Below the pieces are notes generated by a model. It was not told the origin of the DNA, ran no database searches, and saw only the letters and a list, made by a program, of their open reading frames with translations. A stretch of 64,000 bases of DNA from Escherichia coli (GTDB taxonomy: Bacteria > Pseudomonadota > Gammaproteobacteria > Enterobacterales > Enterobacteriaceae): NCBI RefSeq assembly GCF_003334335.1, contig NZ_QOWQ01000001.1; one strand, given 5' to 3'. The position numbers and the translations under genes were made by a program. Positions 48,574 to 51,352 of the stretch are shown piece by piece; position 1 is the stretch's first letter, and every line of letters begins with the position of its first letter.

Positions 48574-50199
48574 ATGAATATTTTCACAGAGGCTGCAAAA
48601 CTCGAAGAGCAAAATTGTCCGTTTGCTATGGCGCAAATTGTTGATAGCCGAGGCTCGACTCCCCGCCATTCTGCACAAATGTTAGTGCGCGCCGATGGTT
48701 CTATCGTCGGTACAATTGGTGGCGGAATGGTTGAGCGGAAGGTGATTGAAGAGTCGCTTCAGGCATTGCAGGAACGTAAGCCGCGATTATTCCATGGACG
48801 TATGGCTCGTAACGGTGCGGATGCTGTCGGGTCAGATTGTGGAGGTGCAATGTCAGTATTTATCAGCGTCCATGGTATGCGTCCACGTCTGGTGTTGATT
48901 GGCGCGGGGCATGTCAACCGGGCGATAGCCCAGAGTGCGGCGCTATTAGGATTTGATATTGCCGTTGCTGATATTTATCGCGAAAGCCTCAATCCTGAAC
49001 TATTCCCACCATCAACCACGCTTCTCCATGCTGAGTCGTTTGGTGCGGCAGTGGAAGCACTGGATATTCGCCCTGATAATTTTGTCCTGATTGCCACGAA
49101 TAATCAGGATCGTGAAGCCCTCGACAAACTCATTGAACAGCCCATTGCATGGTTGGGGTTGCTGGCAAGTCGTCGCAAGGTTCAGCTTTTCCTGCGTCAA
49201 TTGCGTGAGAAAGGCGTGGCTGAAGAACATATTGCCCGTTTACATGCGCCCGTTGGTTACAACATAGGTGCGGAAACGCCGCAGGAGATCGCCATCAGCG
49301 TGCTGGCAGAAATATTACAGGTGAAAAATAACGCGCCGGGTGGGCTGATGATGAAACCTTCTCATCCTTCCGGACACCAGCTGGTGGTGATTCGCGGTGC
49401 GGGAGATATCGCCAGTGGTGTGGCGCTACGTCTGTATCATGCGGGTTTTAAAGTGATCATGCTGGAAGTGGAAAAACCGACAGTGATTCGTTGTACCGTG
49501 GCGTTTGCCCAGGCCGTGTTCGATGGCGAAATGACGGTCGAAGGCGTCACTGCTCGCCTGGCAACCAGCTCTGCGGAAGCGATGAAACTTACCGAACGCG
49601 GATTCATTCCTGTGATGGTAGATCCCGCCTGTTCATTGCTTGATGAACTGAAACCGCTTTGCGTGGTGGACGCTATTCTGGCGAAACAGAATTTGGGAAC
49701 GCGGGCAGATATGGCACCAGTAACAATCGCGCTTGGGCCGGGCTTTACTGCTGGGAAGGATTGTCATGCGGTAATTGAAACAAATCGCGGGCACTGGCTC
49801 GGTCAGGTGATTTACTCTGGTTGTGCGCAGGAGAATACCGGTGTTCCTGGCAATATTATGGGGCATACCACCCGACGGGTGATCCGTGCTCCTGCTGCAG
49901 GCATTATGCGATCCAACGTGAAATTAGGCGATCTGGTGAAAGAGGGCGATGTGATTGCCTGGATTGGTGAGCATGAAATTAAAGCACCGTTGACGGGGAT
50001 GGTGCGTGGCTTGTTGAACGACGGCCTGGCAGTGGTTGGTGGTTTTAAAATTGGTGATATCGATCCTCGTGGTGAAACCGCTGATTTCACCAGCGTTTCT
50101 GATAAAGCCCGGGCGATTGGCGGCGGCGTACTTGAGGCGTTAATGATGTTGATGCATCAGGGCGTGAAAGCGACAAAAGAAGTGCTGGAAGTGGCTTAA
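48574..50199 (+). CDS. yqeB: XdhC/CoxI-family accessory protein YqeB (selenium-dependent molybdenum hydroxylase system)
   Basis: ORF track 48574..50199, 541 aa; Rossmann-like LIGAGHVNRAIAQ and VVIRGAGDIASGVA segments. Confidence 0.75.
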   Translation: MNIFTEAAKLEEQNCPFAMAQIVDSRGSTPRHSAQMLVRADGSIVGTIGGGMVERKVIEESLQALQERKPRLFHGRMARNGADAVGSDCGGAMSVFISVHGMRPRLVLIGAGHVNRAIAQSAALLGFDIAVADIYRESLNPELFPPSTTLLHAESFGAAVEALDIRPDNFVLIATNNQDREALDKLIEQPIAWLGLLASRRKVQLFLRQLREKGVAEEHIARLHAPVGYNIGAETPQEIAISVLAEILQVKNNAPGGLMMKPSHPSGHQLVVIRGAGDIASGVALRLYHAGFKVIMLEVEKPTVIRCTVAFAQAVFDGEMTVEGVTARLATSSAEAMKLTERGFIPVMVDPACSLLDELKPLCVVDAILAKQNLGTRADMAPVTIALGPGFTAGKDCHAVIETNRGHWLGQVIYSGCAQENTGVPGNIMGHTTRRVIRAPAAGIMRSNVKLGDLVKEGDVIAWIGEHEIKAPLTGMVRGLLNDGLAVVGGFKIGDIDPRGETADFTSVSDKARAIGGGVLEALMMLMHQGVKATKEVLEVA

Positions 50200-50206
50200 A
50201 TGAAAA

Positions 50207-50414
50207 TGGCCGGATGGTATTACCCACCCGGCCTGAGACTGATGACAAACGCCAAATTGCCTGATGCGCTACGCTTATCAGGCCTACAAGTGCATTGCAA
50301 TCTATTGAATTTGCGATGTTTTGTAGGACGGATAAGGCGCTCGCGCCGCATCCGGCATCAACAAAGCGCACTTACTTGACAATCTTTGGCCGGATGGTAT
50401 TACCCACCCGGCCT
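50207..50414. repeat. REP pair flanked by two identical 28-bp near-palindromic direct repeats, filling the yqeB-yqeA convergent spacer
   Basis: TGGCCGGATGGTATTACCCACCCGGCCT at 50207-50234 and again at 50387-50414; between them GCCTGATGCGCTACGCTTATCAGGCCTAC and TGTAGGACGGATAAGGCGCTCGCGCCGCATCCGGCA. Confidence 0.75.
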
Positions 50415-50419
50415 TTAAA

Positions 50420-51352
50420 TTACTGACAAATCACCGTTCCTGTTTTGCCTTCAATCCCTTCTTTCGCTTTGCTCAATACGGTAATCAGTGCTTCACGACC
50501 TGCGCGAGAGCGAGCAAACGAGGCGGCAGCTTCCACTTTAGGCAGCATAGAACCTTTCGCAAAATGACCTTCTTCGATAAAGCGTTCAGCATCACTTAAT
50601 GACAGGCGATCGAGCCACTGTTCATTCTCTTTACCGAAGTTAATGGCCACTTTTTCTACCGCAGTCAGAATGATCAGCATATCGGCATCAATCATTTCTG
50701 CTAAACGGGCGCTGGCCCAGTCTTTATCGATAACCGCGCTGGCACCACGCAGATGGTTACCTTCACGAATAACAGGGATACCACCACCGCCAACGGTGAT
50801 CACCACCTGACCTGCATCTACCAGAGCTTTAACCGTTTCTTTTTCAATGATATCAACCGGTTTTGGCGAGGCAACAACACGGCGATAGCCGCGACCAGCA
50901 TCTTCTTTCAGAGTGTAACCCTGTTTTGTCAGTTGCTCTGCTTCTTGCTCGGTAAAGAACGAACCGATCGGCTTGGTCGGGTTGAGGAATGCCGGATCGT
51001 TAGCGTCGACTTCGACCTGAGTAACCAGCGTTGCTACAGGTTTATTAATGCCCCGAGAAAGCAGTTCTTCTCTTAAAGCGTTTTGTAGATCGTAACCAAT
51101 ATAACCCTGGCTTAATGCAACACAGACAGACATCGGCAGCATTGGCGAGTGCGCTTCAGTTTTTGCGGCAGCTTCAAAGGCCTGGTTAATCATGCCCACC
51201 TGCGGCCCGTTACCATGAGTGACGATAACTTCATGTCCCTGGGCAATTAAATCAACAATTGCCTGAGAAGTAATTTTTACCGCTTTCATTTGCCCGGCCA
51301 GGTCATCGCCCAGCGCATTCCCGCCCAGGGCGAGAACAATTTTCTTACTCAT
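50420..51352 (-). CDS. yqeA: Carbamate kinase-like protein
   Basis: ORF track 50420..51352 (-), 310 aa; MSKKIVLALGGNALG amino-acid-kinase N-terminus. Confidence 0.85.
   Translation of the reverse strand: MSKKIVLALGGNALGDDLAGQMKAVKITSQAIVDLIAQGHEVIVTHGNGPQVGMINQAFEAAAKTEAHSPMLPMSVCVALSQGYIGYDLQNALREELLSRGINKPVATLVTQVEVDANDPAFLNPTKPIGSFFTEQEAEQLTKQGYTLKEDAGRGYRRVVASPKPVDIIEKETVKALVDAGQVVITVGGGGIPVIREGNHLRGASAVIDKDWASARLAEMIDADMLIILTAVEKVAINFGKENEQWLDRLSLSDAERFIEEGHFAKGSMLPKVEAAASFARSRAGREALITVLSKAKEGIEGKTGTVICQ

Follow-up and report, generated by a model that had tools for sequence, protein, structure and literature searches.

A BIME-1 element between yqeB and yqeA of Escherichia coli is flanked by two copies of a terminator hairpin, a duplication that recurs at many BIME-1 loci

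The spacer between the convergent genes yqeB and yqeA of Escherichia coli carries a BIME-1 element that very probably landed in the terminator shared by the two genes and duplicated its 28-bp hairpin, presumably by way of breaks at the hairpin foot followed by gap filling. No repeats are more abundant in enterobacterial genomes than REP and BIME sequences, whose existence has been known for some 40 years. The mechanism of REP insertion was nevertheless still called unknown in 2021 (PMC8266576), and it is still unestablished according to a 2026 preprint (bioRxiv 10.64898/2026.03.23.713779).

In the 64-kb window, by which we mean the whole stretch of DNA that was analysed, the 28-mer TGGCCGGATGGTATTACCCACCCGGCCT occurs exactly twice, both times on the plus strand, without mismatches and with 180 bp from start to start (Table 1), against a chance expectation of 0 in 100 dinucleotide-preserving shuffles. 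No third copy was found in the window when up to 3 mismatches were allowed. The left copy begins 7 nt past the yqeB stop codon, and the right copy ends 5 nt short of the yqeA stop codon. Each is a near-palindrome, in which the arms GGCCGGATGG and CCACCCGGCC, of 10 nt each and 90% complementary, enclose a loop of 6 nt; since the asymmetric loop and the stem mismatch are identical in both copies, the two are direct rather than inverted repeats. Between them lie two REP units. The perfect repeats, their distances from the stop codons, their near-palindromic form and the enclosed REP doublet had all been picked out beforehand in a sequence-only reading of the window, and each was recovered here. 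The annotation of NC_000913.3 has only CDS features at this spacer and no curated REP entry. A GTG-initiated open reading frame of 94 amino acids on the minus strand (50087-50371) crosses the REP doublet into the end of yqeB and is without support as a gene.

Table 1. Features of the yqeB-yqeA spacer in window coordinates
Feature	Position	Strand	Remarks
yqeB stop codon TAA	50197..50199	+	ORF 48574-50199; named yqeB in matching genomes
Ancestral A-run AAAA beside the left hairpin copy	50203-50206		upstream
Left 28-bp hairpin copy	50207..50234		stem 50208-50217 / 50224-50233, loop TATTAC
BIME-1 (RIP/RIB-type) element, the inserted unit	50235..50386	+	152 bp; missing from empty alleles
Left terminal motif GAGACTGATGACAAACGC...	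50235..50258	+	invariant columns in the six-locus alignment
Y-type REP, inverted (CTAC-tailed) orientation	50259..50287	+	exact match to GCCTGATGCGCTACGCTTATCAGGCCTAC
Long L-type linker, 35 nt	50288..50322		IHF-consensus-like site ATTCAATAGATTG on the minus strand, ~50298-50310
Z-type REP, GTAG head	50323..50357	+	invariant columns TTTTGTAGG.CGGATAAGGCG...GCCGCATCCGGCAT
Right terminal motif ...AACAAAGCGCAC...CAATCT(T)	50358..50386	+	family consensus end is CAATCTG
Right 28-bp hairpin copy	50387..50414		ancestral TTTAAA retained downstream; distal hairpin for yqeB
yqeA stop codon	50420..50422	-	ORF 50420-51352; carbamate-kinase-like, 'arcC' in PGAP

Comparison across strains identifies the repeats as the mark of an insertion. 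A 521-bp query covering the locus is matched over its full length in 1649 of 5426 complete E. coli genomes (filled allele), and in most of the remaining genomes 341 bp are matched instead, exactly 180 bp less. The short alleles, for instance those of O157, IAI39, 214-4 and H8, read TAA-ATGAAAA, one 28-mer, and TTAAA-TTA. Because these alleles are shorter by exactly 180 bp and hold a single hairpin, the insertion has duplicated the complete hairpin, and the 28-mers are its 28-bp target-site duplication. The suspicion in the earlier reading that the repeats are an insertion or duplication footprint is thus supported, and the strain comparison it had called for finds empty sites in most E. coli genomes.

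The same genomes bear on the view that the 28-mers belong to the repeat family, as terminal direct repeats or a common REP-flanking motif, or else stem from an unrelated local tandem duplication. The 28-mer occurs at most twice per genome (median one copy), at the yqeB-yqeA locus only and on no E. coli plasmid, so that a family-wide or genome-wide motif is refuted, and the genome-wide search proposed at the outset came out in favour of an insertion footprint. Two exact copies are present in 1441 genomes, as compared with 1649 filled ones; about 200 filled genomes are without two exact copies, and in alleles with the insert a point mutation can affect one 28-mer, as in strain Z142-6 (L005), where CCCACCC has become CCCCCCC in copy 1. 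Only the position beside REPs and a weak resemblance of the 28-mer to the Z REP stem, with which it shares GGCCGGAT (local score 9), speak for a family repeat. At other BIME-1 copies the flanking hairpins are different ones, specific to each locus, and among the 5426 E. coli genomes two hairpins never occur without the element. We therefore regard this view as close to excluded.

The insert is the same throughout the filled alleles (1630 genomes at ≥99% identity), and this uniformity indicates a single insertion event. The filled allele probably goes back to a common ancestor of some 30% of the sequenced E. coli, K-12 and BL21 among them. The polarity assigned here is based on the distribution over named lineages, with O157, IAI39, ST95 and ST131 being empty. 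With the polarity reversed, hairpin, BIME and hairpin would be ancestral, and deletion between the two 28-mers would have given the short alleles. Repeats of this length in direct orientation can recombine to a precise deletion, whose product could not be told from an empty site; about 26 genomes with flanks at least 99% identical to those of K-12 do lack the insert (1675 as against 1649), and in 1997 Bachellier and colleagues reportedly spoke of such absences as 'excisions of a whole BIME-1', which we count in favour of this polarity. The short allele is, however, in the majority and spans the O157, IAI39, ST95 and ST131 lineages, whose flanks are 1-2% diverged, and the filled allele is nearly uniform. 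Even if some losses have occurred, two hairpins require an original insertion with duplication, and we consider the reverse order very unlikely. Strain 214-4, empty and with locally identical flanks, was considered as evidence for precise excision and rejected; it is uninformative on this point because its 6-kb flanks are just 99.1-99.5% identical to the window.

In order to delimit the inserted unit, the 152 bp between the repeats were used as a query. Paralogues were obtained in all 5426 complete E. coli genomes at 84-90% identity, and in all of these genomes they span the insert from position 1-2 to position 151-152, which places the family boundaries at the inner edges of the 28-mers. Over its whole length the insert can be aligned with its counterparts at uspB-pitA, mog-satP, entD-fepA, aspC-gloC and yajD-tsx. 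In these copies the ends GAGACTGATGACAAACGC... and ...CGCACTTTGTTAACAATCT are conserved, as are the Y and Z REPs, which constitute arms of the inverted repeats I1 and I4 and are retained across the six loci. The linker core GCAAT.T.TTGAATT is invariant or nearly so over the six loci, all aligned copies keep the core GCAATNTNTTGAATT, and some 100 further cores were found. The linker is identical to the IHF consensus WATCAANNNNTTR at 12 of 13 positions and may thus hold a binding site for this protein. When the survey is extended to the 45 loci described below, GAGACTG is the most frequent 5' end. In the consensus of the six-locus alignment, the outermost 15 nt on the two sides of the element agree, in inverted orientation, at 11 of 15 positions; strong terminal inverted repeats were not found at the extreme ends, where the local aligner prefers the REP arms.

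Published work defines BIME-1 as a single-copy unit in which y and z1 are separated by an L linker that is long and conserved and contains an IHF site (PMC3333891; PMC1187871). At yqeB-yqeA there is one extragenic unit between convergent stop codons and no tandem array, and a search for a second BIME-1 core in the 64-kb window returned this single core only. Judged by its sequence, the spacer insert is a full-length BIME-1 with Y REP, L linker, Z REP and conserved outer ends, the Z1 assignment resting on the L linker and the single-copy organisation and not on a sequence distinction between Z1 and Z2. No near-identical donor copy was found in the 5426 E. coli genomes, the best paralogue being about 88-90% identical; this is surprising, as repeats still perfect at 28/28 positions speak for a young insertion. 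Rfam returned only sub-threshold sRNA models at the locus: ES036/CssrF matches the L linker (50280-50322, minus strand) with 36.3 bits, below its gathering score of 37.6, and naRNA4 matches part of the Z REP (50326-50362, plus strand), so that both models match BIME/REP sequence here. Elsewhere, a REP match lies under an annotated small open reading frame ('yahH: protein YahH', NZ_CP117961.1 186950-186997, hits H40 and H205).

The target of the insertion has the features of a terminator. In the empty allele, a GC-rich stem-loop lies between an A-run and a T-run (AAAA-TGGCCGG...CCGGCCT-TTAAA) and between convergent genes, which identifies it, by sequence, as a probable bidirectional intrinsic terminator common to yqeB and yqeA; termination on the plus strand would be the weaker direction, since the T-tract in the empty allele is short (TTT). 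As RNA, the 28-mer folds with -16.7 kcal/mol on the plus strand (z -3.8) and with -22.6 kcal/mol on the minus strand (z -6.1). In the filled allele, a terminator scan flags a sole site, on the minus strand at 50233..50208 and followed by ATTTTCATTT; this is the left copy, which offers yqeA a distal, T-tract-bearing terminator-like site. On the plus strand the left copy is followed by GAGACTG and on the minus strand the right copy is followed by AAAGATTG, neither of them a T-tract. With a T-tract only at the distal copy for each gene, both mRNAs should include the REP doublet and end beyond it. Pairing of one 28-mer with the other, which would enclose the doublet, is possible as well (fold of -87.3 kcal/mol, z = -7.1). 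The idea that the copies serve as terminator hairpins for both genes therefore fits the empty allele, with its A-run, hairpin and T-run, and has to be narrowed for the filled one, in which only the distal copies keep a T-tract.

To assess whether the footprint is particular to yqeB-yqeA, we turned to other BIME-1 loci. Among the first five paralogous loci, uspB-pitA, mog-satP and aspC-gloC have locus-specific hairpins on both sides of the element. Filled alleles were counted in 1940, 467 and 2811 E. coli genomes, respectively, K-12 being empty at mog-satP, and at all three loci the short alleles have one hairpin and the filled alleles two. The duplicated segments measure about 26 nt at uspB-pitA and about 20 nt at mog-satP and at aspC-gloC and are partly decayed; in the right copy at uspB-pitA, for example, 4 nt of the loop are gone.

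For a more quantitative analysis, the BIME-1 core was searched for in one genome per species. Copies came from E. albertii, E. coli, E. whittamii, Escherichia sp. MOD1-EC7003 and three Pseudocitrobacter genomes, and 102 cores with usable flanks were reduced to 53 with full-length ends and then to 45 non-orthologous loci. At each of these, the 36 nt outside the left end were aligned to the 36 nt outside the right end, and left and right flanks taken from different loci served as a control (99th percentile 9.2, maximum 13). Mean flank similarity is 12.5 for own pairs as compared with 5.6 for the cross-locus control (45 loci, Mann-Whitney p = 3e-16), and the own-flank score exceeds the 99th percentile of the control at 28 of the 45 loci, which come from Escherichia and Pseudocitrobacter. 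Flank repeats of 15-28 nt (median 20) are present at 27-28 of the 45 loci and lie 0-3 nt from the element. The left copy has an A-run in front of it in 17 of 27 cases, and the right copy a T-run behind it in 14 of 27. In 20 of the 23 hairpin cases the borders of the duplicated segment are equally far from the dyad, give or take 1 nt, and either end has 0-2 unpaired nucleotides; the length of the duplication varies and tracks the size of the hairpin. The repeat at yqeB-yqeA is the longest of the set and the sole one that is perfect over 28/28 positions. Shorter perfect duplications occur in Pseudocitrobacter spp. (23/23 at L073, 21/21 at L043, 20/20 at L042, 19/19 at L071 and 17/17 at L041), which suggests that BIME-1 has been active more recently there than in E. 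coli. These data show that the normal footprint of BIME-1, at many loci and in several species, is the duplication of a locus-specific palindrome together with 0-3 flanking A/T nucleotides. They likewise show that the mobile unit is about 152 bp long, from GAGACTG to CAATCTG, and that its preferred target is the palindrome of an intrinsic terminator, usually between convergent genes.

A clear flank duplication is missing at 17-18 of the 45 copies, where either the duplicates have decayed or a second insertion mode exists. Seven copies have a hairpin on one side, on the left only at L069, L021 and L050 and on the right only at L074, L048, L056 and L083; here, either one of the duplicates has decayed or been lost, or the insertion took place without duplication. 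At two loci, short direct repeats that are not hairpins abut the element, namely GATAGCAT with 8/8 matches at L064 (5026-5176, minus strand) and CATAC with 5/5 matches at L015 (8801-8951). These could reflect a second insertion mode with a short duplication or could be chance matches.

The core scan also returned some unusual copies. Escherichia sp. MOD1-EC7003 has two tandem arrays, one with four L-linker cores (L080, 7889-8515) and one with five (L087, 376-1002), at a spacing of 115/230 bp, in which BIME-1-type units are tandemly amplified, contrary to the single-copy rule. Exact BIME-1 cores were furthermore encountered in Desulfosporosinus sp. OT (L014, 262 bp), in Methylobacterium frigidaeris (L059, 261 bp) and in metagenome-assembled genomes of Bacteroides (L013) and Collinsella (L088). 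Such cores, on very short or marginal contigs of unrelated phyla, are most likely due to Escherichia contamination or mis-binning.

A mechanism derived solely from these footprints would run as follows. BIME-1 would integrate at a terminator able to form a hairpin or cruciform, and both target strands would be broken close to the stem foot, each in the mirror-image position of the other and 0-3 nt inside the A/T tract, such that the stagger equals the length of the hairpin and not a fixed number of bases. The element would be joined in, and fill-in of the two hairpin-length gaps would yield the order hairpin, element, hairpin. It is from the mirror symmetry of the duplications, and from their length following that of the hairpin, that we infer an opening of the strands at equivalent positions of the stem foot. 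The simplest account of symmetric breaks would be a hairpin or cruciform target recognised by a complex with two-fold symmetry. If each strand is cut 3' of the hairpin, the polarity would be that of HUH enzymes (in the case of TnpA_REP, the 3'-OH of the target attacks an element linked through a 5'-phosphotyrosine); if it is cut 5' of the hairpin, the polarity would be that of DDE enzymes, and sequence alone fits both. The first candidate for the catalyst is clearly TnpA_REP, the REP-associated tyrosine transposase, which would then have to work on two strands in a non-canonical way; the window itself contains no tnpA_REP gene. More tentatively, and with odds we would put somewhat below even, BIME-1 integration may represent a previously undescribed structure-directed reaction that duplicates a whole terminator hairpin, with a variable duplication of 15-28 nt and a geometry closer to repeat duplication by Cas1-Cas2 or to cruciform resolution than to any known transposition of the IS/MITE or HUH type.

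Canonical RAYT peel-and-paste makes different predictions. In this model TnpA_REP, an HUH/Y1 enzyme, cuts out a single-stranded circle of the REP doublet at C/T (the slash marks the cut) and pastes it into one strand, 3' of a short target sequence as in IS200/IS605. The GTAG-headed REP hairpins are of the type that TnpA_REP binds and cleaves, and both element ends contain the C/T step (GAGAC/TG and CAATC/TT) at which the enzyme cuts 5' or 3' of hairpins (PMC3333891; PMC8266576). IS200/IS605 chemistry, however, gives no target duplication (PMC3333891; PMC2817692), yet duplications of 15-28 nt are the rule here. TnpA_REP needs C/T in vitro (PMC3333891), whereas the target breaks deduced from the footprints are mostly T/T or A/A. 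The C/T steps are internal to the element, by 5-6 nt on the left and by 2 nt on the right, and neither falls on a boundary given by the empty sites; if they were used, GAGAC and TG or TT would derive from the target, but the empty sites are without them. The junctions show no conserved target tetranucleotide, the last target base being T in 35 of 45 cases. Finally, the excision footprint of this model (hairpin-GAGACTT-hairpin) has no single 63-nt match in the 5426 genomes, where the coverage statistic is inflated as both halves of the query match the same 28-mer. Taken together, this makes the canonical reaction an improbable source of the duplications. Of the unit proposed in the earlier reading, MITE-like or RAYT-mobilised, the second description is thus the doubtful part, a duplication of hairpin length not being expected from known RAYT/IS200-IS605 chemistry.

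The footprint could in principle also arise without a transposase, by replicative template switching, in which a nascent strand held up at the hairpin switches to a BIME-1 at another site, copies it and resumes synthesis upstream of the hairpin, which is thereby copied twice. Hairpins are known to stall polymerases and to promote slippage, and the duplicated unit is always a hairpin. Against this stand the precise element ends, which are identical at 45 loci (GAGACTG...CAATCTG) and which point to ends defined by an enzyme; the exact full element would have to be captured every time, and the ends of the element share no microhomology with the sequence on the flanks of the hairpins. We judge template switching to be distinctly improbable, and prefer insertion by breaks at the hairpin foot with subsequent gap filling.

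The footprint described here defines a mobile unit (GAGACTG...CAATCTG) and its target (bidirectional terminators), constrains the geometry of the strand breaks and conflicts with the absence of duplication predicted by the favoured RAYT/IS200-like model. It thereby offers a concrete clue to the long-standing question of how REPs spread. Insertion with hairpin duplication would account for the location of BIME-1 where convergent genes have their 3' ends and for the hairpin kept at the stop codon of both neighbours, and each insertion would remodel two 3' UTRs. If the structure-directed reaction holds true, the flanks of existing copies would constitute a genome-wide record of REP dissemination, and plasmids bearing terminators should capture new insertions, with or without TnpA_REP.

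With respect to the literature, the BIME-1/RIP/RIB elements are said to have been described by Gilson, Bachellier and Hofnung, by Oppenheim in 1993 and by Boccard and Prentki in 1993. The yqeB-yqeA copy shares with them the architecture, the length of about 140-150 bp, the single-copy organisation and the conserved linker (PMC3333891; PMC1187871), as well as the location at 3' ends of convergent transcription units and the presence/absence polymorphism among strains, the latter having been known since 1997 (cited in PMC1187871). The element itself does not differ, and yqeB-yqeA provides a new and well-documented case of an already known element; what is added is the duplication of the entire target terminator hairpin. 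Full-text searches for a duplication of hairpins or terminators around REP or BIME sequences found none, the papers on TnpA_REP, RAYTs and REPINs and the reviews on small repeats do not describe a structure-defined duplication of hairpin length, and the text of Ton-Hoang 2012 contains neither 'duplication' nor 'direct repeat'. As far as checked, the general hairpin-duplication footprint is therefore a new property of BIME-1, with an earlier description possible in the primary papers of 1991-1999, which these searches did not cover.

Among other systems, the REPIN-RAYT pairs are similar in that they comprise an inverted pair of GTAG-headed REP hairpins and are non-autonomous, and in their vertical inheritance, slow duplication and diverged copies (PMC3116915; 10.1101/2021.07.10.451892). 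Elements of the IS200/IS605 type insert 3' of a short, sequence-defined target without duplicating it; BIME-1, in contrast, leaves a structure-defined, dyad-symmetric duplication of 15-28 nt, and its mobile unit extends about 24-29 nt past each REP. Like classical DDE-mobilised MITEs (Correia/NEMIS, ERIC/IRU, RUP), BIME-1 is small, without a transposase of its own, bounded by imperfect inverted ends (11/15) and flanked by direct repeats, with filled and empty alleles, but MITE duplications have a fixed length of 2-10 bp whereas those of BIME-1 (15-28 nt) vary with the target hairpin. We know of no IS with BIME-1-like ends.

By way of analogy only, spacer acquisition by Cas1-Cas2 likewise involves two strand transfers, on opposite strands and at the borders of a partly palindromic repeat of about 28 bp, after which gap filling duplicates the whole repeat; IHF takes part in this reaction in E. 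coli, and BIME-1 has an IHF-consensus-like site. The two differ in the inserted DNA (a 33-bp protospacer versus a 152-bp element) and in the target (one array versus many unrelated terminators), and nothing in the comparison indicates an involvement of Cas proteins in BIME-1 insertion. The choice of an extragenic hairpin as a safe landing site is shared with class C group II introns, which insert after intrinsic terminators, and also with IS1397 and ISKpn1, which target REP loops, and with the IS110-family elements ISPpu9 and IS621, which target REPs. These elements, however, insert beside or inside the hairpin and produce no duplication or one of 3-4 bp, and the hairpin itself is not duplicated, in contrast to BIME-1.
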